Assembly (NCBI GenBank): GCA_963735035.1
Contig: CAVTJJ010000004.1
Coordinates: forward strand, 32,001 to 96,000
Direction: 5' to 3'
Length of the DNA: 64,000 nt
From: an uncultured candidate division Zixibacteria bacterium
GTDB lineage: Bacteria; Zixibacteria; MSB-5A5; GN15; FEB-12
The notes under the pieces are model-generated. The model did no database searches. It was given only the letters and a program-made list of their open reading frames with translations, and was not told the DNA's origin. The position numbers and the translations under genes are program-made. Below are positions 1,580 through 35,762 of this stretch, piece after piece; within the stretch, counting starts at the first letter, position 1, and each line of letters begins with the position of its first letter.

Positions 1580-2959
1580 TTGTCGGTTCGTACACACAAA
1601 TATCCCCAGCGAGACCGCCAGCCCCGGAAAGATCGGCTGGAGACCGAACCAGTAGTCGCCCGACGAGCCCATATACTGCGAGAGCGACCAGACCAGCGCC
1701 ACCCCGCCCGACAGGACCACCGACGCCAGCGCCCACTCGCGACGGCATGCGGCGGTTCCCCACGAACGCCGTGAACACGGGGATCAGCAGCGCCGGGGTG
1801 CCGATCGATCCGAACACATACCAGATTTCTATCACCGAGCGAAATACCAGCGCCAGCACGATCGCCAGGCCCATCGTGACCACCAGCCCTATATGCGTGA
1901 ACCGGGTGACCTGGTCTTCGCCAATAATTCCGAGACGGCGCAGGATGTCGTTGCCGAAAGTCGATGCCGCTATGAACGCGTAGGAGTCGACCGTCGACAT
2001 GACCGTGGCCAGCATCGCCAGAAGGAACAGCCCAAACAGTCCCGGCGGGAGTTCCTGCGCGCCCAGAACCGGAAACGCCGCCACCGGGTCGGCCAGATTG
2101 GGGAGCAGCGCCCGGGCGTACAGACCGCACGACGTGGTCATAAAATCGAATACCGCCCAGCACAGGATTGATAAGTAGATGCCGTTCACTGGCGACCTTT
2201 CTCGGTACGCGCCGCGTAGCAACGCTGGTAGAAGCCGGCTCGATCAGGGTCGACAGCGCGATGACATACCAGACGGCCACGTACCAGCCGGAGCGCCCGC
2301 CGTTCCAGGTGAGATGAGTCGCCGGAAGGTGTGCTTCCAGAAACGATAGTCCGCCGTAACGCGACACCAGCACGATAACCAGTACCGCGAAGCCGAGAAA
2401 CATGAGCACGAACTGCAGGATATCGGTTCGTATCACCGACTTGAATCCACCCATGTACAGGTAGACTCCGGACAAGAAGCGTGCCGAGCACCACACCGAC
2501 CCAGTACGGCCAGCCGAACAATTGCTCGGCCATGACTCCCAGCATGAGGACATAGGCGGTCGGGACCGTCATGGCGAATATGACCATCGCACCCACCGCG
2601 GCGGTCCGGTCGCCGTAGGCATGAGCGAGACGATCCGGGATAGTCAACGCCTCGGACTGGCGCGCCTTCTTCGCGAGGTATAAGGCAAACAGAAACGCCG
2701 CCAGATAGTACGGGACACCGAACACGAGCCAGTTCGAGAGACCGTAGCGATAGCTGTACTCGCTGATGCCTAAGATACCCCCGTACCAGGTGGACACCAG
2801 CGACGCCACAAACGCCGGCAGGGTGAGCATCCGCCCCCCGAGGATGACTTCGGCGGCGGGGCTGTTCTTCCCCAGCCGACGGAAGAACCCGACCCCCATC
2901 TGCGCGATGAGGTACGCGACCACGAGGCTGTAATCAATGAAGCTCATATGCAGTTTCAA
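1580..2959 (-). CDS. Sodium:solute symporter (SSS family), frameshifted; 3' end uncertain
   Basis: Continuous SSS protein split over four ORF-track frames (SLVSTWYGG, YMGGFKSVIRTDILQF, FYQRCYAA, LATVMSTVDS); at least 3 indels. Confidence 0.85.
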
Positions 2960-2979
2960 CGTGTCGAAACCTACAATCT

Positions 2980-3380
2980 TTGGATGCCCCGGTTAAACCG
3001 GGGCATGCAGTGAGGCCGCTGTCATTCACGTGCCCGGCAGATGTCCACATCTGCCAGACTCGTACACAAAACATCCTTAGGTGGCCCACCCGTTTGCGGG
3101 CGGGGAAACACATCCACTCACCGGACCAGTACCCCACCCAACGGGTGGGTTGCTAATCTCGACGGGGCGTAAGCCCCGTCAGAGGTCGGGGGCCTATGAC
3201 CAATGCGCTCGGAAGATTCAAATCACTCACCGTTGGCAAACCGTTAGATTAGGTCATCCTTCCGAAAACGAGTATCAAGTCTTCTGCCACCATCGCCGCA
3301 CTTGCCGCCAGTTTCTTTCATTCTGTCGCACACCTCATGGGCACCCGTCTTCACGGGGGTGACGGAACCCGCGGTTCCGT
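2980..3380. repeat. Cluster of REP-like hairpins
   Basis: GGATGCCCCGGTTAAACCGGGGCAT, GTGCCCGGCAGATGTCCACATCTGCC (3030-3055), GACGGGGCGTAAGCCCCGTC, GACGGAACCCGCGGTTCCGTC. Confidence 0.75.
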
Positions 3381-3389
3381 CTCGCTCCA

Positions 3390-5913
3390 CTATAACATCT
3401 CCAACTGCACCTGGCCCCAGAATGACCGCTCCGGCGCCACAAAATACTCCGCCCAGCCGTGGATCGACATGCTATCCGTCATCGTAGTAGTAGTTGCCAC
3501 CGTATCCTGAAGCTTCGTACTTCTTGTCACCCATGTTGTCCACCCTCAACGCCATCGTAATTTCCCAATGCAGAAATCAGGAATCGCATACTGATAACGA
3601 CAGCGATGAAACCACATATGGATCGAGCGACAGATTTCTATGTTCAGCAGGTCCATGTAATGACGTCCCACCAGACGAATTCTGTTCGTCACTCGCCAAT
3701 TACCACGCTCGTAGTCAGTGATCGAGATTCCCGACATAATCCGGGAAATTGACCAGCGTCTTATTCTTGTAGTCTTACTGCCCGGCTCGCCCAATCACGT
3801 GTCCAGAGTGTGTCGTACGCGATAGTTCGACCGAGCCGTATTTTTTACAAAATACTTAACGCGATTGTAGTTGTACGCGAAATTGGAACTGAACTTCAGC
3901 GAGGCGTTCGGCTTAACCGTGGCGCTAAGCTCTATTCCCGAATGCACCGAGCGCCCGGCATTGGTCGTGATCAACAAACCGGTGTTCGGATTGACGCCAC
4001 CTTCCGGGATAATCTCATTGCGGAAATCCATCCAGAACAGATTGCCCTCGAGGGCCAATTTGTCGGTGCGGTACCGGGAACCCAATTCGAAATCATACAC
4101 CCGCTCGTCTTTCATCAGCGGCTTACCAAACTTGTATACGGTGGAGTCGGCGTTGACGCTCTTGATCTGGAGTGACGGGAGAATCGTGGGGTCACCGGCG
4201 TCATAGATAGACGCGTCGGTCGGCGTCCGCGATGACACGGCGAAATTGGTGAACAGATCGATCTTCGGGGTCAAGTTGTAAGTAGCGCCGATCCGGGGCG
4301 AGAAGAACAGCCAATCAAGCTTGTAGTCATAATTGTGAAACGCCCACATGGGTACCTGATCGAAAGCATATCGCTGGAACCTCACCTGGGCCGTTACCTG
4401 CGATGACAACCGCTCGGTCCACTTGCTGTGCGTCTGCGCAAAGAGCGAACCGACCCATTTCTTGCCGAAGTATTGATAATACTTATGCTGCGGCTGAAGC
4501 TGCCCGCCTATATGCTGCGCCCAGACCACCTGGCCCCAGTGATTCGATTCGAAGTAATAGAATGACCCTCCCAATCGGTGCGTATGCCTCCCTCGCTCCA
4601 GAGTCAGGGTCGGATTCCATCCCCACTGATTCTTGTACACCCACTGCTGACGCACCAGATCGCCGGATTCGTATGGACGGTCAGTAGTCGGGTTGATGTC
4701 GACGAACAACGAATCGATATTATAGTCATAGTACGAGCTGCCAGCCTTGTACTGCTCGTAGAACCCTTTTCCCCGAATATAATAGAGCGTATTGGCCAAA
4801 GTCGTCCGGTCATTGATCTGCCAGGTGTTGTGCAGATGATAATGCGGCTGATTGAAGTTGTCGGTCTCATTGGGGTAGGTCAAGCACGTTGCTGCGCCGG
4901 TTGGCGTTGATCGCTTCCCGTGTCGCGCCCCAATAAGCCAGATGCATTTTCATCGGGCCGCCGTAGACGTACAGCTCGGTCGTCATGTGGGCGTCGAGCC
5001 GGGCCACTGAAAAGGCGTACGCCCATCCCTCGTACCAACTGTTCTCGCGATATCCGCCGGTCTTCTGTTTGGAGAAACGGCCGCCGAACTGCCAGCGTCC
5101 GTCGACCAACCCGGATGAATATTCCAGACTCTGCTTGTAGATGTCCGAGAGAAATGCCCCGCGATGCAGATACTCACCGTAGCCAGAGGTCAGTTTAGTG
5201 TACCTGCCCCGAGAAAGCGCACTGGTAGCGACATTGATCGTTCCGCCGAATGACGCGTCACCATAGAGCGAGTTCCCCACCCCGCGTTGAATCTGGATGT
5301 CATCGATGTTCGCCCCGAAATCGGGCAGGTCGACAAAGTAGGTCGCCTGATCTTCGGGGTCATTGAGTGGCACCCCGTTGATGTAGGTCGAGATGCGTTG
5401 ATCATCGAACCCGCGAATGCTGGCATACGAATAACCGAGCGACGCACCGCCGTCGGTGTAAGTAAGCACGTTGGGGGTGGTCTCCAGAAGAAGCGGGAAC
5501 TCGCCGACCGTGTAATCACGCTTGATGTCTTTCGAAGAGAGATCGTCGAAAGCGATCGGCGTTATGCCTTCCTGGGCCCGTTCGCCCCGCACCAGGACAT
5601 CGGTCCCTCGGTAATATTGTTCCTGCAGCACTATTGTGGACGGAACATAACCAACGTTGAATTGGCGCGAGTAATAACCGACCGATGAGACGGTCAGCCG
5701 TGTTACCACTTCCTGACCGACAGGAACCGCCAGGTCCAGGACAAAATAGCCGTCGGTCTTGCTTACTGTGCCCACCGACGGGTTATTGGCGACGACTGAA
5801 GCCGACGGAATCCCGCGGCCTTGCGAGTCGACGATCCAACCTCTGATTTGATCGCCTCGGGCGACCCCCGCGCACAGCGACAGGGCGACCACGAAACTGG
5901 TTGTGAATCTCAT
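3390..5913 (-). CDS. TonB-dependent receptor, probably thiamine/precursor uptake (multiple frameshifts)
   Basis: Signal peptide, plug motifs (SIRGFDDQRISTYINGVPLNDPED, IQRGVGNSLYG), beta-barrel, C-terminal RVDNMGDKKYE...APERSFWGQVQLEML*. Indel near 4875 and several in 3470-3840. Lies downstream of a TPP riboswitch. Confidence 0.85.
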
Positions 5914-6007
5914 GACAGTACCTCTACCAAACACGGGTTTAGTAAGATTCCGTCCTGAGTCGATAGGTATGTCCGCGGTATGCGGACCGGTCGATGTAAC
6001 CACATCT

Positions 6008-6088
6008 CCGTTTCCCTACGCCGGTATTACCCGGATCAGGTCGAGGGGGTATGTTCTCAGCCGGTGTCAGTTACGGCACCCCCAACGG
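6008..6088 (-). ncRNA. TPP (thi-box) riboswitch
   Basis: Minus strand reads CCGTTGGGGGTGCC...GGCTGAGAACATACCCCCTCGACCTGATCCGGGTAATACCGGCGTAGGGAAACGG, with the canonical CTGAGA, ACCTGAT, GTAAT and GCGTAGGGA motifs and P1 pairing. Confidence 0.95.
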
Positions 6089-6217
6089 GATCTGCTTGCC
6101 GGAAGTATATACGGACGTGTTAACGCAGAGCGCAAGTGGGTTTTGAGTTGACGTGTTACGCTTGTCGTGGCACATTGTGGCAAGGTAAAGCCGCACCAAA
6201 GCAGGAGAGGCGTCGAC

Positions 6218-6724
6218 ATGAACGGACAGCTACCGGAACAGAGCCAGCCTCAAGGTGTTGTTCTGCAATCATCACCACGAACCAAGTTCCCAATAGGTCT
6301 GCTGCTTGTTATTGCGTTCACCGGGTTGAGCATCCTGTTGCTACTCAGCTGCCTGGCGAACCCCAGATTCATCGTTGGCACCCACATAGTCACGGGCACA
6401 CCGGTAGTTGTTTACGTGCTCGCTGAACTAGGGCTCAATGTCACTCTGTTTATCTGGCTACTCCAACGAAAATACCGTGGGCGTATTCTCGGTATCGCCC
6501 TCAACTCGTACTATGTCCTGTGGACGATTGTCGATTCTCTCATTATTGTCTTTCGTACCGAGGAATTCGTGAAAGCCAACGATCTACTTGCTCAGGGGCC
6601 CTCAAATACGATGTCGCCTGGAGTTACACTGGCTCTCAAGGCTGTGGTTGCCGTGGTGTGTCTGGTCATGAATGGGGCCGTCGTCGCGTATCTAATCACC
6701 AGAAAGCGCCACTTCAAAGAGTGA
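6218..6724 (+). CDS. Hypothetical membrane protein (~4 TM)
   Basis: GGAGAGG RBS before ATG 6218; four hydrophobic segments. Confidence 0.75.
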   Translation: MNGQLPEQSQPQGVVLQSSPRTKFPIGLLLVIAFTGLSILLLLSCLANPRFIVGTHIVTGTPVVVYVLAELGLNVTLFIWLLQRKYRGRILGIALNSYYVLWTIVDSLIIVFRTEEFVKANDLLAQGPSNTMSPGVTLALKAVVAVVCLVMNGAVVAYLITRKRHFKE

Positions 6725-6864
6725 TCTTGGTATCAGTACTTCGCACCTCTCCGCACTCCACTGTTCAAAATCTGAACAACCTTGCATAATGGCCCAAATG
6801 CTCAAGAGGCTGCACTGTAACAAGTTGCTGTTCCTACAGTTAGATGTGCGGTCGTTTCCCGGAA

Positions 6865-6880
6865 AGGCACGAGGTTTGCT
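6865..6880 (+). promoter_or_regulatory. Sigma54 (-24/-12) promoter
   Basis: AGGCACGAGGTTTGCT = GG-N10-GC, near-consensus TGGCACG-N4-TTGCW; palindrome TGTTCA-N5-TGAACA at 6762-6778 upstream. Confidence 0.75.
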
Positions 6881-6890
6881 GTATACCTAG

Positions 6891-6962
6891 ACTGACTTTG
6901 TTGGGCAACCAGTCCCAGCACTGTTAGACCTTGCCCCCGACTGACCACCGGGGGCTTTTTTT
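6891..6962 (+). ncRNA. Putative sigma54-dependent small RNA
   Basis: Lies between the sigma54 promoter and an intrinsic terminator; internal hairpin TGTTGGG/CCCAGCA; no ATG ORF. Confidence 0.6.
6933..6962 (+). terminator. Rho-independent terminator
   Basis: GCCCCCG-loop-CGGGGGC followed by T7. Confidence 0.85.
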
Positions 6963-7400
6963 GTCGGTCTGGGGTAGTCTGAACGGCGTCAACCTGGTGT
7001 CGGGTTGCGCGCTCAATTGGTCCTCGCGCGTAACCCGACCTACAGGTTCACTCTTCGCGGTTTTGTATATACGAAGCACCTTAACCTGTCTTGCCCCGCT
7101 TCAGGCGGGGCACCCATCTTCGAGCCGTCAGGGCCGCCGAGGCGGGCCGCCCACATTCTTAGTCACCCTGAGATACGCCTGCCCTGAGCTCGCCGAAGAG
7201 TCGAAGGGTGACGCCAATCTCGCTAACCCGGCTTCGACAAGCTCAGCCTGACTTGTTCTTCTGGCCCTCAGACGTTTCTGCCTTACGGCCGGTTCAATTG
7301 GACCGGTGTCGGGCAGAGACGCCCGACACCACTCGGTTCGACCGCCCACCACAGTATTGTATTGACGCTCCCCTACGCCACCCGCTAGATTCGCGATTCT

Positions 7401-9398
7401 ATGAAAGCTATGAAGGGCATCGTCTACGTAGGCGCGGTCGTGCTGTTTGGCGTCCTCGCCTACTTCGCATACCAGACACTCCGCGTCAAGAGCATCCCCG
7501 AGCGCCTGGCCGACATTATTCACATCGAAGACACCCGTCAGCCGGTCGACCGGCTGGAAGACTACCTCAACGACGATTCGGCGCGGGTCCGCTGCTACGC
7601 CGCGATGGCTATAGGTAGGATCGGAGCTGAGAACGCCGGGAAGCTGCTCATGGGGCATCTGACCGACTCGTCTCTTGATGTCGCCCGGACGGCTGCGTTC
7701 GCTATCGGTCTGACCGGCCAGAACCAGTGGGCCTCGTCGCTCGCCGACACCGCCCGCTCGCTCCCGTCCACTGTCGCCGCCCGCGCCATAAAATCGGCCG
7801 GACGGCTTGCTGACAGCACCATGACCCCGGTACACAACAAACTGGCCGGATATCTGGCCGATGCCTCCCCTGAAGTGCGAGAGGCGGCCTGTCTGGCGCT
7901 CTTCTACGCGCGAGCCAAAGCGACGGCCGAGGCGATTATCCCGGTGCTCGACCGCGAATTGGACCCCGGGGTGCAGAAAGCCGGGCTATTCGCGCTGGCG
8001 AGGCTGGGAGTCACGTCAGCGGGATCAGTCTATTCCAAATACCAGGCCGACCCTGACCCCGAAGTCCGAATGCTGGCCGTACAGGGGCTGGCGAAGGCCA
8101 ACATCTCCGACAAAGTCCGGCTGATTGCTCTGTCACTAAACGACGCCGACAACCGGGTGACCGCCCAGGCTATCGCGTCACTTCAAATTACCGCCGACTC
8201 CGGAGCCACTTATTATCTCGCCCGCAAGTTAGAAACGCAGGCCGATGAAAAATTAACGGTCGCCCTCCTCGGCGCCTTGCGGGCCCTTCGCAGCGACAAA
8301 GGTGTCGCCACCGCCGAAATGCATGTGAGTTCCGGGCTCAGAGAAAATGTTGTCGCGGCGGCTATCGGCTACCTCGCCGTAATCAAACAAGATCGAATCG
8401 TTCCGGTGATCGATTCCCTACTCAACACCAAGCCGCCGGCGCGGGTGCGGGTTGCCTGTGCGGACGCGTTCGCCGAGATCCACAACGCCTCGGTGATACC
8501 GCGTTTGGCCATGCTGTTCAAAGACGAAGACCCGATTGTGCGCGGCGCGGCTTTCGGACACCTGGTTGCAATCGATTCTACCCAGGTCGACTTGTACATC
8601 AAGATCGCGCTGGCCGATCCGGACAAGATGCCGATCGTCCTCGCGCTAGATCAAATCGGCCAGCGCAAACTGACCGGCTATCTTCCCCAGGTACAGAAAT
8701 TGATGGGCCGCGCCAAGGATCTCGACCTCGACATCCGACGCTCCCTGATCGACGTTGTCAGTAAGTATGTGGACACTCTCGGCACCGACAGCGCTCTGTC
8801 CGAGCTGGTTATCGAAGGGCTGAAGGACCCCGAATATATCGTTCGCCGTCAGGCCAATGATCTCTTCCGCGAGAAATTCGGCCACGACCGCTCCAACATG
8901 GTTGTACCGGCGGAGACCCGTATCACCGAGAAGCAGCTTCAGAAAGTAATGGCTGATACTTCCGGCCATCCAACGGCGCTGATTCAAACCAATCGCGGTG
9001 AAATAGAAATCGAGTTGTTGCCCGATGTCGCCCCATTGACCGTGCTGAATTTTATCGACCTGGCCCGCTCCGGTTTCTACGACGGGTTGAGTTTCCATCG
9101 GGTGGTACCCAATTTCGTAGTACAGGGTGGTTGTCCCCGGGGGGACGGCTGGGGCGGCCCGCCTTACTATATCCGATGTGAATACTCCGACGTTCCTTTC
9201 GAGCGCGGCACAGTCGGCATAGCGACGTCGGGCCACGACACCGGCGGCTCGCAATTCTTCATCTGTCATTCGCCGCAGCCGCATCTCGATGCCCGCTATA
9301 CCGTATTCGGTCAGGTACTCTCCGGAATGGATGTGGTCGATCAGATCGTAGTGGGTGATATCATTCAGAAGATCATTATCAATGAGAGTGGAAAATGA
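7401..9398 (+). CDS. HEAT-repeat protein with C-terminal cyclophilin-type peptidyl-prolyl isomerase
   Basis: N-terminal TM anchor, HEAT repeats, then GFYDGLSFHRVVPNFVVQGG, GGSQFFI and HLDARYTVFG. Confidence 0.92.
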   Translation: MKAMKGIVYVGAVVLFGVLAYFAYQTLRVKSIPERLADIIHIEDTRQPVDRLEDYLNDDSARVRCYAAMAIGRIGAENAGKLLMGHLTDSSLDVARTAAFAIGLTGQNQWASSLADTARSLPSTVAARAIKSAGRLADSTMTPVHNKLAGYLADASPEVREAACLALFYARAKATAEAIIPVLDRELDPGVQKAGLFALARLGVTSAGSVYSKYQADPDPEVRMLAVQGLAKANISDKVRLIALSLNDADNRVTAQAIASLQITADSGATYYLARKLETQADEKLTVALLGALRALRSDKGVATAEMHVSSGLRENVVAAAIGYLAVIKQDRIVPVIDSLLNTKPPARVRVACADAFAEIHNASVIPRLAMLFKDEDPIVRGAAFGHLVAIDSTQVDLYIKIALADPDKMPIVLALDQIGQRKLTGYLPQVQKLMGRAKDLDLDIRRSLIDVVSKYVDTLGTDSALSELVIEGLKDPEYIVRRQANDLFREKFGHDRSNMVVPAETRITEKQLQKVMADTSGHPTALIQTNRGEIEIELLPDVAPLTVLNFIDLARSGFYDGLSFHRVVPNFVVQGGCPRGDGWGGPPYYIRCEYSDVPFERGTVGIATSGHDTGGSQFFICHSPQPHLDARYTVFGQVLSGMDVVDQIVVGDIIQKIIINESGK

Positions 9399-12118: not shown

Positions 12119-12160
12119 CCTTCGTAGCGCGGGATCGTTGCGCGGGATCCCTGCGACAGC

Positions 12161-12280
12161 CTTGCCCCGCTTCCCTATTCTGTCTTGCCCCCGCTTCCCC
12201 AATCTGTCTTGCCCCGCTTCCCTAATCTGTCTTGCCCCGCTTCCCCAATCTGTCTTGCCCCGCTTCAGGCGGGGCACCCA
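12161..12280. repeat. 23-bp tandem repeat x4 ending in a REP-like hairpin
   Basis: CTTGCCCCGCTTCCCYAWTCTGT units at 12161, 12184, 12208 and 12231, then TGCCCCGCTTCAGGCGGGGCACCCA (also present at ~7087-7116). Confidence 0.9.
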
Positions 12281-12482
12281 TCTGCAGTTGTAGATCGAAA
12301 CCAGGCCGCTTCGGACGTTTTCGAGATCCCGATTTGTGTTGGTGCCCTAGCCAGGTGCCCCAGCGCTTGCGCTGGGCACTATTAAGACAAAACCCCTCGA
12401 CCATTTTGGTCGGGGGGTCCTGCCGATCTTCAGGATAGCAGAATCATCCCCCGTGGCGGCGGGAGGATTCTGCCGTGCAAGC

Positions 12483-13548: not shown

Positions 13549-15762
13549 TCAATTGCTTACAGACCAATCATATTTTATCCCGGCGTACAGACTGCGTCCG
13601 GGCCAGTAGCCGTAGCGCAGATTCACTTGATCCAGGAGATTTTCCAGCCGCACATAGGCTTCAAGTCCGCCGATCTTCTTGAACACATTCAAATTGAGCG
13701 TCGCCCGCGCCCGCGCCCACTCGTCAGGAGTCCCTTCATTGCCGCCCGTGTTCGTGCGCGGTACGAATAGTTTGCGCGATTGATAGGTACCCCAGAACGT
13801 GCCACCGATCCCCAGCTTGTCATAGAAGCCGCTCAATGAAAACTTCAAGGTGTGCGAAGGACGGTTCGTCAACGGCTGACCTGTGCTCAAATTCAGGCTC
13901 TTCAGGTAGTCGTAGGAAAACGAGATGTCAACATTCTGTGACAGCCTCACTCGTGATTCCCATTCGATACCTTGCGTAGTGGCACGTTCAATGTTCTGGT
14001 ATACATAGATACCGCGATAATATTTCGTAGAGCTTCCGATCATGATGAAGTCAATCAGGTCGTTCAGATGATTATAGAAGTATGTGATGCGATGCATACC
14101 GATTGTACCGTATGAAAACTCGGCCGAAATCGAGGCATTAAGCGAGTTCTCATCTTTGAGAGGTCGGTACGTGAGGTGCCCCGCTCGCGCCAGGCTATCG
14201 GCATTGTCAACCAGGCCGCCATATACTACATATCCTGCGGCCGTGTGATCGAACGTAAAGTACTGTTCCTTGATCGACGGCGCCCGGAAACCATAACCGG
14301 TGAAACCACGCAGCTTGACCTGTTCACTTGGCTGATACATGATATTGATCGATGGATTGGTCTTGCCGCCGAACGAGCTGTGATGTTCGTAGCGCACTCC
14401 GGGGAGAAAAGTCCATTTCTTGAAAGGACTGTACTCATACTGAAGATAAGCGTCGCCCGCCTCATCAGCCTTCTTCTCCTGGGCAAGGTCGCTCGACTTC
14501 AAATCCTGATAGTTGTAATCGAATCCATAAGTGGCGACATGGTTCTGGCCGATCACATAATTTGAGCTGTACGAGGTTTGTAGGAACACGTCTTTTGTCT
14601 TCGACGTATCCACCCACGTACCAAACTCACGCTCTACCTTGTTCCATTGATGGTCATAGTAGCTGCCGTAGAACCGCAGGTTCATTGAGTACTTGTCGCC
14701 GGAGAGATAGTCGAGGTTCATAGAGCCGTCGTAACGGTCATTGAATTCGGCGTCATCGTAAACCATCAAGACGGGTTCGGACTCGGATTCCACCCAATTG
14801 CGGTCCTCGTTCATCCACCGCCCCGATCCGGTCACGCTCCAGCGGTCGGTCAGTTTGTAGCGAAGTTTGCCGTCAAGGTTGACCCGGTCGATAGCGTCCC
14901 CACCGTTAGTATGCGGTGTGGACTTGTCCAGATCGAAACCGTCCGTGTGGTAGTATTTCGCTCCCCCGCTTGCTCCCCACTTGTTATTGCTCAATTCGAG
15001 CGCCAGTTCAGGATTGAAAGTCCCGTAGGCCCCGTAATCGGTGCGTAGATTAGCGCTCCTGGTGTGATTCTGGATCTTCTTCGTGATGATATTGATCACG
15101 CCGCCCATGGCGTCGGAACCGTACAGGGTCGACCCGGTCCCTTTGATAATCTCAATCTTGTCTACATTAGACAGCGAGAACTGACCGAGGTCCAACCCGC
15201 CGTTCACCCGGCCCACCGCCCGCTCACCGTCGATAAGTACCAGAATTCTGTCACCTTCGACCCCTCTGATAATTGCCCCCTTGCCGGAGAGATCATCATT
15301 AATGGCGACACCTATCGAAGACGACAGCGCTTCGTCCACCGTGGTCGCGCCGGTCCGCTGGAAGTCACGCTGTGTAACTACTTCGGTTTGCACCGGGACA
15401 TTCTTCAACAAGTGCGGCGAGCGCGTGCCGGTGACAACCACATCTTCGAGTACCCACGGTCGGGGTATAAGCGTAACATCCAAAAACGTCGTGTCCTTCA
15501 CGACCATTTTCAACGTATCGCTGAGGTCATAGGTTACATGGGACACTACCAGACGGTAAGTGCTGTCGGGCAGATTCTTGAATTCGTACTCGCCGTGACG
15601 TGACGATTCAATGACCGTATCCAGTTCTACGATCTGGACATTGGCTCCCCAGATCGGATTACCTGTCTCGGAATCAATTACGCGGCCTCTAAGAGTCCCC
15701 GCGTTTGCGGAAATCACTACAAATGAGCTTGCAATCAGGGTCAGATATATCAATGGACGCAT
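13549..15762 (-). CDS. TonB-dependent receptor (HmuR/CirA-like)
   Basis: VVVTGTRS TonB box, IEIIKGTGSTLYGSDAMGGVINIIT plug motif, GFRAPS, C-terminal ENLLD...GRSLYAGIKYDW. Confidence 0.93.
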   Translation of the reverse strand: MRPLIYLTLIASSFVVISANAGTLRGRVIDSETGNPIWGANVQIVELDTVIESSRHGEYEFKNLPDSTYRLVVSHVTYDLSDTLKMVVKDTTFLDVTLIPRPWVLEDVVVTGTRSPHLLKNVPVQTEVVTQRDFQRTGATTVDEALSSSIGVAINDDLSGKGAIIRGVEGDRILVLIDGERAVGRVNGGLDLGQFSLSNVDKIEIIKGTGSTLYGSDAMGGVINIITKKIQNHTRSANLRTDYGAYGTFNPELALELSNNKWGASGGAKYYHTDGFDLDKSTPHTNGGDAIDRVNLDGKLRYKLTDRWSVTGSGRWMNEDRNWVESESEPVLMVYDDAEFNDRYDGSMNLDYLSGDKYSMNLRFYGSYYDHQWNKVEREFGTWVDTSKTKDVFLQTSYSSNYVIGQNHVATYGFDYNYQDLKSSDLAQEKKADEAGDAYLQYEYSPFKKWTFLPGVRYEHHSSFGGKTNPSINIMYQPSEQVKLRGFTGYGFRAPSIKEQYFTFDHTAAGYVVYGGLVDNADSLARAGHLTYRPLKDENSLNASISAEFSYGTIGMHRITYFYNHLNDLIDFIMIGSSTKYYRGIYVYQNIERATTQGIEWESRVRLSQNVDISFSYDYLKSLNLSTGQPLTNRPSHTLKFSLSGFYDKLGIGGTFWGTYQSRKLFVPRTNTGGNEGTPDEWARARATLNLNVFKKIGGLEAYVRLENLLDQVNLRYGYWPGRSLYAGIKYDWSVSN

Positions 15763-20271: not shown

Positions 20272-20985
20272 GTAGGGCGGGTCCGCTTCGAACCCGCCAC
20301 TACCGGTGCCCCAGCGCTTGCGCTGGGATCTTCGTAGGTCGGGATGCTTGTCATCCCGACATCGTACGACGGCCGCTAGGCCGTCATACCTGCGGAGGCA
20401 GGTACCCAGTCAGGCTCGCTGTACAGAACTGCAGCATAGTCTTTGTGTCGATTGATAGAAGGCTCTTTCATACAATCCACTATTTTGACCTGCCATCTTG
20501 ACTGGGTTCCCGCCTTCGCGGGAATGACGGAACCTTCGGTTCCGTTTCTTACTACATCGTCCCCCCATTGCGTGGGGTAACTGAACATATCGGCATATTG
20601 ACGTACCCGATCCGCCGGTTTGTAATGTGGGCGGCAAAGCCTGCCCCCGACTTGATCGGGGGGCCTCGTCTGCCCCTTCTTCGTGGTGGATTGTAAGTAG
20701 GTCAGGCGGACTTGACGCCTGACATTCCGCGTCCAATTAAGAAACGGGACGCCCGTCCCGTCATCCTGGCGGAAGCCAAGACCCAGTTGTGAATGCTATA
20801 TCAATGGGGTCTTGCCTGACATTCCCTTCGCTATGAATGTTTGAACATTGGCATTTGTGCCCGTTCCAACAGAACTGGGCCCCGGTTTACACCGGGGTGA
20901 CAGAGCTTGCCATGCTTCGACAGGCTCAGCATGACTTTGCGGTGGCAGAACCACCCGCCCGTGGGGCGGGGGTTCTGCCCTACGA
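20272..20985. repeat. Large cluster of REP/RPE-like elements between convergent genes
   Basis: GTAG hairpins (20272, 20334, 20697) and ~150-bp bipartite elements 20381-20530 and 20758-20902. Confidence 0.8.
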
Positions 20986-22048: not shown

Positions 22049-23176
22049 TTACTCCTCTGCTACGCCACCGCCGCTGACCCGAAATCGTCGCGCCTCGGCC
22101 ATCAGCATGTCCGGCGGTTCGACTGCGGTCGTAAGAAATAGCTGACCGACATCGCCGAAACTTTCCACCAGACGCGCCGTGCGATCCGGGTCGAGCTCAG
22201 CGAAAATTTCATCGAGCAACAACAACGGGGGTTCGCCGTGCTTTGCTCTCAGTATTTCGTAAACGGCCAGTTTCAATGCCACCGCCGCCGCCCGCCATTG
22301 TCCCTGCGATCCGTGCGTGCGTGCCGGAAAATCGCAGATCGTGAAATTGATCTCGTCCCGGTGGGGACCGACCAGACATATCTGGGCGGCTCGTTCCCGG
22401 TCGGCATTTTTCGCCAGCGCCGCCTCAAACACAGCCACGACGGCGCGCTCATCGCTTTCAGCCACATTGAAAGTCACCCGCGGCGCATACTCAACCAGAA
22501 GTTTCTCGCCACCGCTGATGCGTTCATACGCCCGCCCGGCGCGTACGGCCAGTTCCCTCAGAAAGACAGCCCGTCGAAGCATGATCTTGGTTCCCAGGCT
22601 GACCAGCAGCGGGTCAAATGGCGATGGATCCATTTCCTTCTTTAGCGCCGCATTCTTCTGAGCCAAGGCTTTTTGATAATCGGTCAGGTCGGCCAGATAG
22701 GTAGCGGTCAGTTGAGAAAGATACAGGTCGAGGAAGAGGCGTCGGGTCGATGGCGGTCCTGATAGTATCTCGCTGTCTTCCGGTCCGGCCGCGACCAGAT
22801 TGTGCAACTCAAACAGTTCCGATGCCCGCGCAGGCGCCGAATCAATGGTTATTCGTTTTCGTCCCCCGCGCTGGTAGGCCACCGCCACGGTGCGACGTCC
22901 GGCCGGAGTGTCCAGCGTGCCCTCCAACCGATAGTGCTCAGCCGTCTCGCGCACCAGCACTGCATCGAGCGCCCCGCGCTGAGAGCGTCCCAGGCAAACT
23001 GTGAAGATCGCCTCAAGCAGGTTGGTCTTCCCGGAGCCGTTGGCGCCGTAGAATACATTGACCCGTGGCCCGAAGGCTACGCGCCCCTCTATCAGGTTGC
23101 GAAAATTCGTAATGGCCAGGGAGACTATCGGCATATTACTGGATAAGCAAAAATGGCAGATGCTATCATCTGCCAT
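22049..23176 (-). CDS. recF: DNA replication/repair protein RecF (start may be the downstream MPIV)
   Basis: GANGSGKTNLLEAI, GPHRD, GSQGQ, LLLDEIFAELD. Confidence 0.95.
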   Translation of the reverse strand: MADDSICHFCLSSNMPIVSLAITNFRNLIEGRVAFGPRVNVFYGANGSGKTNLLEAIFTVCLGRSQRGALDAVLVRETAEHYRLEGTLDTPAGRRTVAVAYQRGGRKRITIDSAPARASELFELHNLVAAGPEDSEILSGPPSTRRLFLDLYLSQLTATYLADLTDYQKALAQKNAALKKEMDPSPFDPLLVSLGTKIMLRRAVFLRELAVRAGRAYERISGGEKLLVEYAPRVTFNVAESDERAVVAVFEAALAKNADRERAAQICLVGPHRDEINFTICDFPARTHGSQGQWRAAAVALKLAVYEILRAKHGEPPLLLLDEIFAELDPDRTARLVESFGDVGQLFLTTAVEPPDMLMAEARRFRVSGGGVAEE

Positions 23177-23198
23177 TCATACGCTGATTCTTACAATC

Positions 23199-24311
23199 TT
23201 ACTCCGCGAGTCTGAGCGGCATCACCAGGCAGAGAAAATCATCTTTGGATATTTCCGGGCTGTACATCAACCCGGCCGAGACCGGACTGGAAAATTCGAA
23301 AGTCACCTCGTCACCCGGCATCCGTGACAAAATATCGGTGATGTAGGTCGCGTTGTAGCCGATCTCCACCGGCTCGCCCTGGTAGTCACAGTCGATCACT
23401 TCCATACCTTCGCCGCCAAGGTCGGCATTGCTCGTAGAAAGGGTCAGGGAGCCTTTCTTGACACCGAATTTTACCTGGTGTGTCAATGTATTCGAAAGTA
23501 TCGAAACGCGCCGTACCGCGCCGCCAAGGTCTTCCTTGGACACACGCAAGGTCTTGTCGCTATTCTGCGGGATTACTTGCTCGAAATTGGGATACGGGCC
23601 ATCGATCAGACGCGATGTCAGCACATACTCGCCGAGATTGAAAATGATATTATTATCCCCAAAGATAATGCCAACCTCGCGGTTCTGACCCTCGGTGAAT
23701 TTGGGGATTAGATTCAGCACTTTAGGCGGGATAATAATATCCTCGCTCATACCCTTCAACTTCTTGTTCTCAACCGCGACCTTAGCCAGTCGGTGACCAT
23801 CGGTGGCAACCATCTGCATTTTGTCGCCTTTGGTCTGCCAGAGCACACCATTCAAGGCTGGTCGAGTCTCGTCGTTGGAGCAGGCAAAAGTAGTTTTGCG
23901 TACCATTGACGCCAGGCTGCTGGCTTCGATCTTGATTTCCTTCTTCGTATTAACAGCTGGTAACTTGGGGAAATCATCGGGTGATACAGAAGCGATCTTA
24001 TAGGAGCCTTTAGCAATTCGGACTTCCACCCGAGAATTGACCGACTCGATGGTTATATCCGTCTCGGGGAGTTCACGCACGATATCAAAGAGGATTCTCG
24101 CCGGAAGAGCCGCCGAACCTTTCTTTGTGACCTCACACTCCACACCGCCGGTGATGGAAATATCCAAATCGGTGGCGGATATTTTTAGTTTACCCTCGAG
24201 AGCTTCCACGAGCACGTTGGTCAGAATCGGCAGGGTTGATTTACTGGGCACCACCTGCAACACGGATTGCAGACAGGCCGCTAATTTGGATTTTGGAAGC
24301 GTGAACTTCAT
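23199..24311 (-). CDS. dnaN: DNA polymerase III beta clamp
   Basis: LPILTNVL, ATDLD, VATDGHRL, SRLIDGPYPN, VMPLR. Confidence 0.97.
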   Translation of the reverse strand: MKFTLPKSKLAACLQSVLQVVPSKSTLPILTNVLVEALEGKLKISATDLDISITGGVECEVTKKGSAALPARILFDIVRELPETDITIESVNSRVEVRIAKGSYKIASVSPDDFPKLPAVNTKKEIKIEASSLASMVRKTTFACSNDETRPALNGVLWQTKGDKMQMVATDGHRLAKVAVENKKLKGMSEDIIIPPKVLNLIPKFTEGQNREVGIIFGDNNIIFNLGEYVLTSRLIDGPYPNFEQVIPQNSDKTLRVSKEDLGGAVRRVSILSNTLTHQVKFGVKKGSLTLSTSNADLGGEGMEVIDCDYQGEPVEIGYNATYITDILSRMPGDEVTFEFSSPVSAGLMYSPEISKDDFLCLVMPLRLAE

Positions 24312-24359
24312 AAGTCGCGAATCTCCATCAAAGCGATTATCAACAGACCTCTACAATAA

Positions 24360-24605
24360 CTAGCCTATATATATATATCAAGTAGTAGTAGTAGGTGTTG
24401 TTGATATGTTGGTAAAGCCGTATATGCCGGTCATTCCCGGAGGGAAGCCTATGAACAAGACGGTATTGTGCGATACGTACGACTGGAATGCTGTCAACAA
24501 CGGTTGTGGGCCACTATCACATCTATACACAGACGCTCCCCAGTGAGAGCCTAAATGGCCAACAATCGCAGTTTCACACAAGCTATACATAGTAGTTGTC
24601 AACAA
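24360..24605 (-). other. oriC unwinding region: DnaA boxes, DnaA-trios and AT run
   Basis: Minus strand TTACCAACA-TATCAACA-ACAC-CTACTACTACTAC-TTG-ATATATATATATA, plus further degenerate boxes (TGTCAACA) between dnaA and dnaN. Confidence 0.85.
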
Positions 24606-24609
24606 GCTA

Positions 24610-25968
24610 TCAATATAGGAGCGCCGCCGATATCCTGTCAATTCTTTCCCGGAAACCGGCATCACGGGCCATACGCGAAGCTACTTTGTCGCAGGCGTGA
24701 ATCACGGTCGTATGGTCACGCCCACCAAAACGATCACCTATCGCCTTCAGGGAGCTATCCGTCAAAGTCCGGGCCAGGTACATCGCGACCTGCCGCGCCA
24801 GCGCAATATCAGCCGTCTTCTTCTTGGCGACCATCATCTGAGGGTCGACACTGAAATACTCGGCACTTTTAGTCTGGATTGCGTCGATCGTAATATGCTT
24901 GTGTGTCCCGGCCGCGGAGTCGGTAAGCAGGCGCCTCGCGAGATCAAGACATACCGGTTCTCGCTTCAATGAAGCGTAGGCCAACAGACGGTTGAGCGCA
25001 CCCTCGAGTTCGCGGACATTGGTAGTAATCCGGTCGGCGATAAAAGTAACCACCGTGTCCTCGAGTTGGACACCCTCAGATTCAAGTTTTTTGTAGAGGA
25101 TCGCGGTCCGGTTCTCCAGGTCAGGCGCCTGAAGATCGGTTACCAGACCCCACGAGAAACGAGACAAGAGGCGTTCTTCCAATCCTTTGATGTCTTTTGG
25201 TGACCGATCAGAGGTCAGCACAATCTGTTTGCCGCTCTGGTGAAGGGCATTGAAAGTATGGAAGAACTGCTCCTGGGTACCTTCCTTGCCGGCAAAGAAC
25301 TGGATGTCGTCAATCAGGAGCACGTCAACATCGCGGTAGTACCGGGTAAAATCCGCAATAGAACGATCAGAAATGGCGGCAATAAAATCCGACGTGAACT
25401 TCTCCGAGGTCGCGTACATGACCCGCTTGGACGGGTAGGTTTCGAGGATCTGGTGACCGATCGACTGAACAATATGTGTCTTCCCCAGCCCCGTACCGCC
25501 GTAGATGTACAGCGGGTTGTACTTGGTCATCCCAGGGCCTTCGGCCACCGCCTGGGAGGCCGCACAGGCAAACTGATTGAAATCACCCACCACCAGCGAA
25601 TCGAAACGGTAGCGCCCGTTCATATTGTGATTGGTGTTGGGCTTGGCGGGCCAGCCAACCGGCGCCGGCGTGGCAGCATCCAGAGGCAACCTGGCCTGCT
25701 CTTCCTCTTCGGGAAGAGAGCTGATCACATAGATAATTTTCTGCTGGCGTCCGAGTACTTCCTGAAAGGCCTCAGCTACCAATTCACGGTAGTGCTCGTC
25801 AATCCAGTCCGCGACGAACTGATTGGGAACGAGAATTTTGAATTCGCCGTTCCCGGTCGGTTCGCCCCGTGTCGGTTTGAGCCAGGTATTGTAAGACTGT
25901 TGCTTGAGACGTTTGGAGATATAGTCCAAACAGTCTCTCCATTGCTGAGAGTTGTTCGCATTTGACAT
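24610..25968 (-). CDS. dnaA: Chromosomal replication initiator DnaA
   Basis: YNPLYIYGGTGLGKTH, LLIDDIQF, QEQFFHTFN, NVRELEG, FGGRDHTTVIHA. Confidence 0.98.
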   Translation of the reverse strand: MSNANNSQQWRDCLDYISKRLKQQSYNTWLKPTRGEPTGNGEFKILVPNQFVADWIDEHYRELVAEAFQEVLGRQQKIIYVISSLPEEEEQARLPLDAATPAPVGWPAKPNTNHNMNGRYRFDSLVVGDFNQFACAASQAVAEGPGMTKYNPLYIYGGTGLGKTHIVQSIGHQILETYPSKRVMYATSEKFTSDFIAAISDRSIADFTRYYRDVDVLLIDDIQFFAGKEGTQEQFFHTFNALHQSGKQIVLTSDRSPKDIKGLEERLLSRFSWGLVTDLQAPDLENRTAILYKKLESEGVQLEDTVVTFIADRITTNVRELEGALNRLLAYASLKREPVCLDLARRLLTDSAAGTHKHITIDAIQTKSAEYFSVDPQMMVAKKKTADIALARQVAMYLARTLTDSSLKAIGDRFGGRDHTTVIHACDKVASRMARDAGFRERIDRISAALLY

Positions 25969-31299: not shown

Positions 31300-34200
31300 T
31301 CAGATTTTGGCCACCTCGATGGCGGCCTTTTCACCATTAATGTCCCATTCCACGGCCTTAGTCAAGTTTTCACCTGACACAAATTCGAGGCTGTGGGCCA
31401 GGGTTTCGTGCTGTATGAAACTGCCGTGGCGGTCGGCCGCCTGGCGTAGTCGCTCGGTGGAACTAATCTTGATGCGGATATTGTCGGTCACTTCGAATCC
31501 GGAACTCTTGCGCATATTCTGGACTTTGTTGACGATCTCCCGCGCAAACCCTTCGTCCCGAAGCTCTTCGTCGATACGGGTATCGAGCGCAATCATGACC
31601 GGACCGTCGGACTCGACCGCCATGCCTTCTTTCTCGGTGCGGATCACGTCGACATGCTCAGGCGCGAGAACCGGTTTCGACGGCAACGAGTCAATCGTAA
31701 GCGTACCCGACGAAGCAAACTCGGCCACTTTGGAGCTCGGCAACTGTGTGACAAACGCGGCCGCCACTTTGACATCGCCGCCCAGTTTCGGGCCGGCCGT
31801 CTTGAAATTCAACTTGGCGCTGTAAGTAACGTATTGATCGAGATTTTCGGCCGGGGCGACTTCCTTGACATTCAGTTCGTCGCGAATAATCCCTAGATAC
31901 GGCTCGAGCTTGGCGAACGCGTTCTTGCCGGGCGCCGAGACCATCATCCTGGCCAGTGGCTGACGTACTTTGAGATTCTTGCGGGTGCGCGCCGCCCGAC
32001 CGAGCTGTACGAGTTTCTCCACCAGCCCCATCGAATCTTCCAACTCGCTGTCGATCAAAGACTCGTCCGCTTTCGGATACTCCATCATGTGCACCGAGAG
32101 CGGCAGGCCGTGCTCGGTCCGTTTCTCGCCGTTCAGTTCCAGCCAGAAGAATTCGGCCATCATCGGGCTGATCGGCGCCGAGAGCCGACACACCCCTTCA
32201 AGCGTTCGCCAGAGTGTCAGATAGGCGCGCATCTTCGACGGATCATCACCTTTGGCCCAGAACCGGCGGCGGTTGTTGCGCACATACCAGTTGGACAGTT
32301 CCTCGATCACGAAATTCTGAATCGCCCTGACCGGACGCGTGATCTCGTAGGCATCAAGACTGCGCGCTGTGTCTTTGACGAGTGAGTTGTATCGGGAGAC
32401 AATCCAACGGTCGAACGTATCCGGCTCACCCGCGCGGGCTTCCAAGAACTGCTCGACCGTCTGCCCGGCTTCATGGGCGCGGTCGAGGATGTTGTCGATA
32501 TTGGCGTAGATTGCGAAGAAACTATACGTATTGCGCAGGGTGTCGTAATACTTGCGGATGACTTCCTGCAAACCGTCAAGATCAAATTTCGTCGGCACAC
32601 AGAGGCCGGAATTCGACACCAGATACCAGCGGACCGGGTCGGCGCCGTACTTGTCGATCGTAGTAAACGGATCGACCACGTTCCCTTTGTGCTTGGACAT
32701 CTTCTTGCCGTCTTTGTCCAGCACGAATTCGAGCACGACCACATTCTTGAACGGGGCCTTGTCGAACATCATGGTCGAGATCGCCAACAGTGAGTAGAAC
32801 CAGCCACGGGTCTGATCGACCGCCTCGGAGATGAAATCGGCCGGGTACTTCTCCTCGAAAACTTCTTTGTTCTCAAAGGGATAGTGCCACTGGGCGTACG
32901 GCATCGCGCCGGAATCAAACCAGACGTCGATCAGTTCTGGTACGCGGGTCATCGTAGAGCCGCACTCGCACTTCAGCTTGACTCCGTCCACCATGGGGCG
33001 GTGCAGATCGATATCGTCCGGGCAGGCCACCGCTTCTTTCTTGAGCTGGGCGACTGAGCCGACCGCTCTCAGCTTGTTGCACCCGGGTTCGTCGCATACC
33101 CAGATCGGCAGCGGCGTGCCCCAGAACCGTTCGCGCGACAGCGCCCAATCGACATTGTTCTCGAGCCAATCGAGCATGCGGCCGGTGCGGATTTCGTCCG
33201 GCACCCAGTTGATCGCGTTGTTATTCTTGATCAACTGCTCCCGGAACTGGGTGGTCCGGATATACCAGGATTCGCGCGCGATATAGATCAGCGGCGAATC
33301 GCACCGCCAGCAGAACGGGTAGTTATGTTCATACAGCTCTTTCTTGTAGAGCTGGCCCGATTTCTTCAAGTCAGCGAGAATGACCGGATCGGCATCCTTT
33401 GACGAACAACCCGGCGTACTTGCCGCCTTCACCGTTTTTGAACAGGCCGTTCGCTTCAATTGCCTGCAGGACCGGAAGATTGTTCTTGAGGCCGATCTCG
33501 TAGTCGTCCGCGCCGAACCCTGGCGCGATGTGGACAATCCCGGTGCCGTCGTCAAGCGTGACAAACTCACCGTTGATGACATAGAACGCTTTGTCAGCCT
33601 GGTCCTTGTAGAAATCAAACAGGGGGATATATTTCCGCCCGACAAAGTCTGCGCCTTTGTGACGGTCGAGCACTTCAACTTCTTCCCCGAGCACCCGCAT
33701 GACTAGCGCTTCGGCCATCACCAGCTTTTCATCGTGGTGAAGCACCGTCACATAGTCGGCGTCTGCTTTCATGCAGAGGGCGGCGTTCGACGGGAGCGTC
33801 CACGGAGTCGTTGTCCAGACTAAGTAGCTGAAATCGGCGTCGGCGGCTTTGACTTTGACGAATACCGACGGGTCCTTGGTCATCGCGTATCCCTGCGCTA
33901 CCTCGTGCGACGAGATCGCGGTGCCGCAACGGGGGCAGAACGGGACGGTCTTGTGGCCCTTGTAGATGACTCCGCGGTCGAACAGGTCTTTGAGGATGTA
34001 CCAGACCGACTCGATGTATTCATTCTTGAGGGTGATATAGGCGTCGTCGAGATCGAGCCAGTAGCCGATCCGTCGGGTGATGACATTCCAGTCGGCGAGG
34101 TACTTGAAGACCGACTCGCGGCATTTCTGGTTGAACGCGGCGATACCGTATTCGACCACCTGGGCTTTGCGTTCGAATCCGAGCTGTTTTTCGACCTCGA

Positions 34201-34483
34201 TTTCGACCGGCAGACCGTGGGTATCCCAGCCACCTTTGCGGTCGACCCGGAAGCCGTTCATCGCTTTGTAGCGGCAGACGAGGTCTTTGACAGCGCGTGA
34301 TACTACATGGTGGATGCCGGGGCGGCCGTTGGCGGTGGGGGGGCCTTCGTAGAAGACGAAGTGCGGCTTGTGCTTAGCGGCGTCCTGGTATTTGTGGTAG
34401 ACCTGCTGTTCATCCCAGAAGGCGAGGATTTTTTCCTCGGCGGCGGGGAGTGAGAAGTTGTCTTTGAGCGGGTCGAATCTCAT
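31300..34483 (-). CDS. ileS: Isoleucyl-tRNA synthetase, IleRS2 type (one extra base at ~33398)
   Basis: EGPPTANGRPGIHH, GWDTHGLP, WTTTPWTLP, DWALSRERFWGTP, DQTRGWF, KMSKH, IleRS2 tail (EGFAREIVNKVQNMRK). Confidence 0.96.
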
Positions 34484-34728
34484 TGGGCTGCTTTCTGCTA
34501 CAGCCGCACAATGTACTCGCCCTCCCCCCGGTTGTAAAGATTTTTCACCGCGTCGTGACCCCCCGCTCCCTACTCCGGGGTGGCGCACCCGCTTGCGGGT
34601 GGGGTTTAGGTGGTGCCCCAGCGCTCGCGCTGGGATGCAAGTCAGGCTGAGCTCCGCTTGCCCTGAGCTTGCCGAAGGGTCGAAGCCGGGTTCACGAAAG
34701 AACCGTCTTTCCCCGGCTTGACCAGGGC

Positions 34729-35762
34729 TGGATTCACATTTGAAGTGCAACAGTTCGCGCCAAAAGAACTCGGCTGGAGTGAGGAAGTCCAGACATTTTC
34801 TGGGGGTGTTGTTGTAGTGCTGGAAGAGATGTGTGAACTGTTTCCGGGTGAGCTTGGTCAGGTCGGTATGGCGAGGCAGTACTCGTCGGAGGCGACCGAT
34901 TCCATTTTCAACGCCACCTTTCTGCCATGGTGAGTAGGTGTTACAGAAGTAGGTCTCGATACCATGGTCATGGAGTTGGTAGTGTTGGCCGAACTCGGGG
35001 CCGTTATCGAAGGTGATGGTTTGTCGCCAGGCGTGCGGCAAGGGTGCCAGGAGAGTGCACATGGCCTTAGCAACCGAGGCGGCATCTTTGGCCGGCAGCT
35101 TAACCCCCATCATCAGGCGTGAGCGCCGCTCATGAAGGACAAGGACGCTCTGATCAGGTATTCGGAAGTTCATGAGATCACCTTCCCAGTGTCCTGGTGT
35201 TTTCCGGCTCTTGGCGCTCTTCGGCCGCGCGGAGATAGGGCACCGCAGGGCTATAGACGACGTCGACCGACCTCTCTTGCACCCTCGCCAGCTACGTCTG
35301 GCTCGGCCACGGATCAGTAAGTACCGCCAAGTGTAATCCTTAGTACGGGCGATCTGCGCGTAGATAAACCGGTAGATCGTTTCGTAGGAAATCACCTTCC
35401 GGCCCATCTCCACGGCCAGCCTTCCCGCGACCAACTCCGGAGACAAACCATTAGCTAGTCCCATCACTACCATGTCGCGCAGTTCTGGACGGCGATCCAA
35501 TTTGGAGCCGGTCCAACGCCGGGCACGGCTCTGGTCGTTGGCATAGGCGGGCAGGTAACCGCTTTGTCGGCTGCGATTTCGCGTTATCTCCCGAGCAATG
35601 GACGATGGCGCGCGATCCAAAGCTGCCGCAATTTGCCGAATCGAGCGCCCCGAGCCACATAAGCGGGCAATCTCACACCGCTCTTCAAGACTGATCTGTG
35701 CATATGTTCGTTCCATGACAACACCTTTAACAGGTGTTGCACTTCGTTTGTGAACTTAGGAG
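34729..35762 (-). mobile_element. IS30-family insertion sequence
   Basis: Imperfect terminal IRs GATTCACATTTGAAGTGCAACA (34731-34752) and TGTTGCACTTCGTTTGTGAACT (35735-35756) around a transposase; exact ends approximate. Confidence 0.88.
34730..35716 (-). CDS. IS30-family DDE transposase (no stop codon inside the element)
   Basis: HTH SIRQIAAALDRAPSSIAREITRN, GHWEGD, TITFDNGPEF, PWQKGGVEN, NNTPRKCL. Confidence 0.92.

Follow-up and report, generated by a model that had tools for sequence, protein, structure and literature searches.

A conserved candidate sigma54-dependent small RNA gene in the uncultured phylum Zixibacteria

Introduction

Does a short intergenic module in the genome of an uncultured candidate division Zixibacteria bacterium encode a free-standing small RNA, and would this RNA be transcribed by sigma54-RNA polymerase under the control of a remotely bound activator? 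The question is raised by a stretch of 64,000 nucleotides of contig CAVTJJ010000004.1, hereafter the window, for which an initial annotation had proposed a stand-alone sigma54-driven small RNA with an enhancer-like palindrome upstream and a terminator of its own. Zixibacteria are known only from metagenomes. Here we show, at the level of aligned nucleotides and predicted folds, that four cis elements and a two-hairpin RNA shape are conserved in four deeply diverged genomes. This conservation in distantly related Zixibacteria makes the element a credible new regulatory RNA of the uncultured phylum.

Results

Layout of the element in the window

Direct reading of positions 6300-7600 located each feature of the initial annotation at the coordinates given for it. 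The element lies between an open reading frame of 185 aa without Pfam match (6167-6724, plus strand) and a gene for a HEAT-repeat/cyclophilin isomerase (7401-9398, plus strand). At its upstream end is a perfect dyad of 17 bp, TGTTCA-N5-TGAACA (TGTTCAAAATCTGAACA, 6762-6778, no strand assigned), which is presumed to be the UAS for an enhancer-binding protein. The palindrome had been placed about 90 bp upstream of the promoter, and its centre lies 96 bp from the GG of the -24 element. A TTGCA (6782-6786, plus strand), possibly a further half-site, follows 3 nt 3' of the dyad and is unchanged in all four of the sequences compared below. The near-consensus -24/-12 element claimed at 6865-6880 reads AGGCACGAGGTTTGCT, one mismatch away from TGGCACG-N4-TTGCW; its core, GGCACG-AGGT-TTGCT (6866-6880, plus strand), has the GG-N10-GC arrangement of a sigma54-type promoter.

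Counting 12 nt past the C of the -12 GC would put the +1 at about position 6891 and predicts a non-coding transcript of 72 nt (6891-6962, plus strand) with its 3' end within a T-run. Near the predicted 5' terminus is CUGAC (6892-6896, plus strand; YYGAC in 4/4 sequences, with GAC invariant), for which GUUAG at 6923-6927 is a possible pairing partner. An inner hairpin, UGUUGGG/CCCAGCA (6899-6920, plus strand), has its arms at 6899-6905 and 6914-6920, as the annotation had described; its sequence varies and its stem is found in every species. Next comes UGUUAGACC (6922-6930, plus strand), identical in all four sequences, of which ACC is unpaired and GUUAG has complements in the 5' end as well as in the terminator loop. 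Five nucleotides link the GUUAG helix to the intrinsic terminator (6933-6962, plus strand), and the GC hairpin and T-run that had been claimed are seen here as a 7-bp stem (GCCCCCG, 6933-6939; CGGGGGC, 6949-6955) around the 9-nt loop ACUGACCAC, followed by T7 (6956-6962). Across the four sequences the loop is conserved as YURACCAYC. A simple consensus terminator scan listed nothing in 6000-8000; it overlooked the terminator at 6933-6962 because it allowed loops of up to 8 nt and the actual loop has 9 nt.

The claim that the RNA encloses no ATG reading frame holds, in that no ATG occurs between 6891 and 6963 and the four sequences share no plus-strand ORF. A small protein on the opposite strand was considered and rejected: the minus-strand frame MV..G.GLT, found in 3/4 sequences, only mirrors conserved nucleotides, and a 1-nt indel leads to a stop in the fourth (L002).

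Chance level of the motifs in the window

Within the window, the sigma54 consensus with at most one mismatch is matched once where 0.69 matches are expected, and 49 of 100 shuffled windows contained at least one match. The palindrome pattern with at most two mismatches gave two matches, which are the same site read on both strands, for an expectation of 1.15; two or more were obtained in 32/100 shuffles. Judged within the window only, the promoter and dyad matches are thus not beyond chance. The element is raised above chance because its whole arrangement is conserved in three other species.

Homologous elements in related genomes

Genome contigs were searched with an alignment of 32 isomerases. 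Generic cyclophilin motifs dominated the result, and 80 loci were kept among at least 601 matched stretches. Most of the kept loci (74/80) belong to unrelated organisms, only six being Zixibacteria-like over most of the isomerase; identity to the window protein is 55% for L001, 49% for L002, 48% for L003, 45% for L004, 44% for L038 and 34% for L078. The named relatives of the window isomerase are from candidate division Zixibacteria/GN15, and its nearest relatives are proteins of 81% and 79% identity (P0002 and P0003). The window isomerase itself is encoded on a contig of 1.63 Mb.

A single-sequence nhmmer search of the 80 loci (2.43 Mb, both strands) with a 230-nt query (6741-6970) recovered the whole module in three loci, L001, L002 and L038, with E values of 5.3e-9, 1.2e-8 and 7.7e-6, the next best match having E 9.4. 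As in the window, each copy lies 5' of the HEAT-cyclophilin gene and on the same strand (4/4). Run with filters off, a covariance model (R1) and a profile nhmmer search each detected a single copy per locus, the best other score being 12.7 bits (E 0.68). Neither profile nhmmer nor R1 detects an element ahead of the isomerase gene in L004 or L078; in L004 the order is ilvC, 250 nt, isomerase gene, with no element in between. In L003, the roughly 284 nt preceding the isomerase gene contain no element. Given that L003, L004 and L078 are without the element, the family is patchy within the phylum.

The record of L038 is labelled Ignavibacteriales; the named relatives of its isomerase are all Zixibacteria/GN15, 'bacterium' or 'Deferrimicrobium', and none is from Ignavibacteria. 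Its isomerase ORF (2822-4372) encodes 516 aa, compared with about 663 aa in the relatives, and the best alignments span only 74% of the query, which may reflect an internal deletion or an assembly gap.

Conservation and geometry of the sequence blocks

The initial annotation had singled out the GG-N10-GC promoter and the terminator as the pair to be looked for in relatives, and both are kept in the same arrangement in 4/4 copies. All conservation and covariation figures given here rest on four sequences, those of the window, L001, L002 and L038. Mean pairwise identity is 83% for the block comprising the dyad (TGTTCAA-N4-TGAACA) and TTGCA, 83% for the promoter block GGCAYG-N4-TTGCT, 100% for the block TGTTAGACC and 78% for the terminator block. 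The dyad-to-promoter spacer is 33% identical, the stretch from -12 to +1 29%, and the inner hairpin 39%. In the promoter, GGCA.G and TTGCT are invariant and the N4 spacing is fixed in 4/4 sequences. A loose -24/-12 regular expression matched 10 times in 1.28 Mb, four of these matches being the promoters of the elements described here. The exact dyad TGTTCAA-N4-TGAACA occurred in 3/80 loci (L001, L002 and L038), each time at the homologous place, and in none of the other 77.

From the dyad centre to the GG the distance is 96, 95, 110 and 103 bp in the window, L001, L002 and L038, respectively; all four lie within the range of roughly 80-150 bp expected for an activator site. They are not in helical phase, which counts against control by sigma54 and an activator. 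The predicted RNAs are 72, 71, 71 and 77 nt long (same order), with the conserved YYGAC starting at the predicted +1 or +2. Invariant in the RNA are the 5' GAC, CCA-G in the 3' arm of the inner hairpin, UGUUAGACC, and the stem and YURACCAYC loop of the terminator.

Independence from the neighbouring genes

The upstream neighbours are all different in the four loci: the 185-aa ORF, ilvC, a TonB-dependent receptor with HmuY, and a Na/alanine symporter. Because the upstream gene differs at each locus, the terminator is not a property of that gene, and its assignment as the terminator of an upstream gene is ruled out.

The downstream gene had been described as separate and driven by its own promoter. 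It starts at 7401, and a sigma70-like promoter, TTGACG-N18-TAGATT, lies in front of it at 7362-7391 (plus strand), outside the RNA; L001 and L038 have TTGACG-N17-TAGATT in the corresponding position. From the terminator to the isomerase start codon the distance is 438, 77, about 1061 and 100 nt in the window, L001, L002 and L038, and in L002 a methyladenine glycosylase gene lies between the element and the isomerase gene. A 5' UTR leader would have neither promoter nor gene between itself and the coding sequence; here the sigma70-like promoter and, in L002, the glycosylase gene intervene.

As to the isomerase gene itself, TTGACG-N17/18-TAGATT is only 9-13 nt from the ATG (window, 7362-7403; L001, 9899-9940; L038, 2783-2824), so that its mRNA would be nearly leaderless and without a Shine-Dalgarno sequence.

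The DNA between the terminator and the isomerase gene in the window (6964-7400) is full of G+C-rich hairpins, pieces of which recur in the window with up to 97% identity over 37 nt. Related sites are 12155-12283, 34640-34685 and 20914-20937, the first being a head-to-tail array of a unit of about 24 nt, CTGTCTTGCCCCGCTTCCCCAAT, with a hairpin at the end. The motif CTTCGACAAGCTCAG, which is related to these repeats, also occurs in L002 (5731-5751). The intergenic repeats look like a REP- or MITE-like family.

RNA folding and pairing

A 76-nt stretch of the window containing the RNA folds with -31.3 kcal/mol (z -4.0), and none of 200 shuffled sequences was as stable; the reverse strand gave z -1.3, with 21/200 shuffles as good. 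The RNAs of L001, L002 and L038 each fold into a 5' hairpin and a terminator, with z values of -3.4, -6.2 and -3.9.

In the alignment of the terminator stem, 27 of 27 lettered cells pair, one cell is gapped, and all seven pairs are kept. At two of the seven the change is compensatory (C-G to U-A; A-U to G-C). A covariation shuffle control reached the observed score in 29 of 500 shuffles, which is unimpressive. The invariant GUUAG has two possible partners. Its helix with the 5' YUGAC pairs in 19 of 20 cells and that with YURAC of the terminator loop in 20 of 20, the latter having the geometry of an H-type pseudoknot whose linkers measure 5, 1 and 3 nt. No pair changes on both sides in either helix, and both are for this reason unproven.

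In the thermodynamic ensemble, the 5' stem has a pairing probability of about 1 for the window and L038 and of at most 0.03 for L001 and L002. The ACC of UGUUAGACC is unpaired in all four RNAs (P>=0.97). The terminator loops of the window, L001 and L002 are equally open (P>=0.97). That of L038 is open only at its central UGACC; of its nine motif bases, the first one and the last three are paired. In these models the open invariant bases, ACC and loop, are the likeliest contact surface of the RNA.

The initial annotation had recognised no known family. A covariance search against Rfam 15, at gathering and at permissive thresholds (E<=10 for the window; E<=5 for L001, L002 and L038), bears this out: the element matches no family in any of the four sequences, Qrr, GlmY/GlmZ and the riboswitches included.

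Search for sigma54 machinery and for targets

Neither an RpoN box nor GAFTGA nor an activator Walker A motif was found in the window or the six Zixibacteria-like loci, which at about 157 kb amounts to weak counter-evidence. Regular-expression scans for the same three motifs over the window and all 80 loci matched only in L009, a Clostridia locus. Sigma54-related Pfam domains were found in 0/44 large ORFs of the window, and no activator gene adjoins the RNA gene within about 10 kb. The dyad-promoter spacers contain no IHF consensus at up to one mismatch (0/4). A search of the available literature found no paper in which Zixibacteria or Bacteroidetes are tied to sigma54, rpoN, enhancer-binding proteins or small RNAs.

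Sequences complementary to the conserved 9-mers occurred in the window 12 times (8.7 expected) and 5 times (1.5 expected), counts that are near chance and include the element itself. When duplexes of the whole RNA with the starts of the two shared downstream genes were compared with random 100-nt windows, a fraction of 0.05-0.94 of the latter was as good or better. The best duplex was that with gene 2 of L038, in the top 5%, the others being mostly at background. Neither comparison yielded a target.

Other features of the window

A TPP riboswitch (5996-6093, minus strand; 73.9 bits, gathering threshold 54.3) lies 5' of a TonB-dependent receptor gene, which is present as two overlapping ORFs, 4867-6003 and 3795-4883. 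L001 also has a TPP riboswitch (14359-14455, plus strand), which precedes an 861-aa ORF. Several large genes of the window read as two overlapping ORFs, among them those for a sodium:solute symporter (1507-2959), the TonB receptor (3795-6003) and isoleucyl-tRNA synthetase (31300-35716). The N-terminal piece of ileS shares its open frame with an IS30-like transposase (HTH_38 and rve), as the symporter piece does with an EcoRII-like endonuclease. The split ORFs might stem from frameshifts introduced by long-read assembly, or the genes might really be disrupted. A dnaA-dnaN-recF cluster is found at 22049-25968 (minus strand), so that the chromosomal origin is probably near.

Discussion

The reading that we consider probable, with a fair margin of doubt, is that the element is a small RNA gene in its own right, which depends on sigma54 and an activator, acts in trans and represents a previously undescribed family of Zixibacteria. 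What the initial annotation had proposed stands as far as the unit is concerned: dyad, promoter, structured RNA and terminator are kept together in 4/4 copies while the intervening DNA varies. Dependence on sigma54 and an activator of the NtrC family, the start site, expression, and action in trans are what we infer from this unit.

According to this proposal, an NtrC-type AAA+ enhancer-binding protein would bind the TGTTCAA-N4-TGAACA dyad about 120 bp upstream of the start, touch sigma54-RNA polymerase at GGCAYG-N4-TTGCT, and use ATP for promoter opening. Transcription would run from about 6891 to the terminator (G+C hairpin and U-run, 6933-6962). The predicted product of about 72 nt would consist of a sequence-variable 5' hairpin, the invariant UGUUAGACC, and the terminator with its conserved YURACCAYC loop. 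It may act in trans on transcripts or on a protein via the single-stranded ACC and the loop, and perhaps via UUAG once the 5' stem opens.

Because the position of the element 5' of the isomerase gene is constant, a cis or read-through link to that gene remains as a minority reading. The element might be a cis-acting leader: the HEAT-cyclophilin operon would then have a further promoter, of sigma54 type and conditional, and the terminator would be an attenuator that polymerase passes in response to some signal, to which the choice of partner by GUUAG might contribute. That the element sits on the same strand in front of this gene in 4/4 loci, despite four different upstream neighbours, speaks for such an arrangement, as do the closeness of element and start codon (only 77 nt in L001 and 100 nt in L038) and the two conserved alternative partners of GUUAG. 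We nevertheless hold it to be unlikely: the isomerase gene's own sigma70-like promoter, conserved in the window, L001 and L038, lies between terminator and start codon; the glycosylase gene of L002 and 438 nt of repeat-rich DNA in the window separate element and gene; the terminator, whose 7-9 pairs are G+C-rich and precede a U-run, is strong and folds without a stem-disrupting alternative; and no riboswitch family matches.

An RNA that binds or titrates a protein through repeated RACC-containing motifs (the 5' YUGAC, UAGACC and the YURACC loop), rather than pairing with mRNA, is likewise a doubtful alternative. No candidate partner protein is at hand and the motifs are short (4-5 nt); the conserved bases are nonetheless invariant and not covarying, with no double-sided change in either GUUAG helix, and three similar short motifs recur in 4/4 sequences. 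A precedent for a sigma54-driven RNA is GlmY (PMC3045617). A protein-binding motif and a base-pairing seed would look alike in the present evidence. The view that there is no RNA gene at all, the blocks being sites on the DNA at which other proteins bind, or else an upstream gene's terminator next to a chance -24/-12 look-alike, could appeal to the chance-level promoter and dyad matches within the window and to the fact that no sigma54 or activator gene was seen in the window or the six related loci. It is very improbable, given that terminator and promoter occur together at a fixed distance though the upstream gene differs everywhere, that compensatory changes preserve the terminator stem, that the stem of the inner hairpin is maintained despite sequence change, and that the fold signal is strand-specific. 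An extended version of the trans-acting RNA gene that we favour would make it the first regulatory RNA family of Zixibacteria and an output of an enhancer-binding-protein/sigma54 pathway, with switching of GUUAG between the 5' end and a loop pseudoknot gating the conserved bases, and with a possible tie to the HEAT-cyclophilin operon; taken in all its parts, this version is a quite speculative one that we would not expect to be right.

For a phylum of this kind, the conserved dyad, promoter and RNA would provide a handle on a signalling pathway, the dyad serving to find the regulon and co-occurrence to nominate the activator. The element would add a new RNA family to covariance-model libraries and a further case of sigma54 activators with sRNA outputs, well outside Proteobacteria. 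The accepted view of how sigma54-sRNA systems work is left unchanged.

Comparison with known sigma54-driven RNAs

Like the candidate gene, GlmY and GlmZ of Enterobacteriaceae (sigma54 with GlrR/QseF) are stand-alone sRNA genes with a -24/-12 promoter, upstream dyads and a terminator of their own. Three TGTCN10GACA GlrR sites and IHF sites accompany their conserved -24/-12 promoters, and comparison of species shows conservation of the promoter and activator sites, not of the remaining upstream DNA (PMC3045617). The element has one TGTTCAA-N4-TGAACA dyad and no IHF consensus, compared with the three activator sites and the IHF sites of GlmY (PMC3045617), a difference that weighs against the favoured reading. 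It further differs from GlmY/GlmZ in matching no Rfam model and in belonging to a different phylum. Its predicted RNA is about half as long as GlmY, and GlmY reportedly acts as a protein decoy.

The Qrr RNAs of Vibrio (sigma54 with LuxO) are short regulatory RNAs that combine an invariant single-stranded segment with a Rho-independent terminator, a design that the predicted RNA of the element shares. Qrr genes are multi-copy, whereas the element, which has no Rfam match, is found in one copy per stretch examined. The LuxO site is TTGCA-N3-TGCAA; the dyad of the element is different, and only an isolated TTGCA lies 3' of it. The consensus of NtrC-type sites is TGCACC-N5-GGTGCA. With these the dyad shares the 17-bp TG-N13-CA geometry and arms of 6-7 bp, but the sequence of the arms differs and the element has a single site, not a pair.

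Further afield, NrsZ of Pseudomonas is a small RNA driven by NtrC and sigma54 (PMC4253122), and the sigma54 regulome of Desulfovibrio vulgaris includes four non-coding RNAs (PMC4641369); both papers present sRNA outputs of enhancer-binding proteins as common, notably in free-living bacteria. The element has no homology to NrsZ or to the D. vulgaris RNAs, and no activator gene lies within about 10 kb of it. Matching no model, and set apart by another dyad, a smaller RNA and another phylum, the element belongs to none of the known sigma54-driven sRNAs and resembles them in design.
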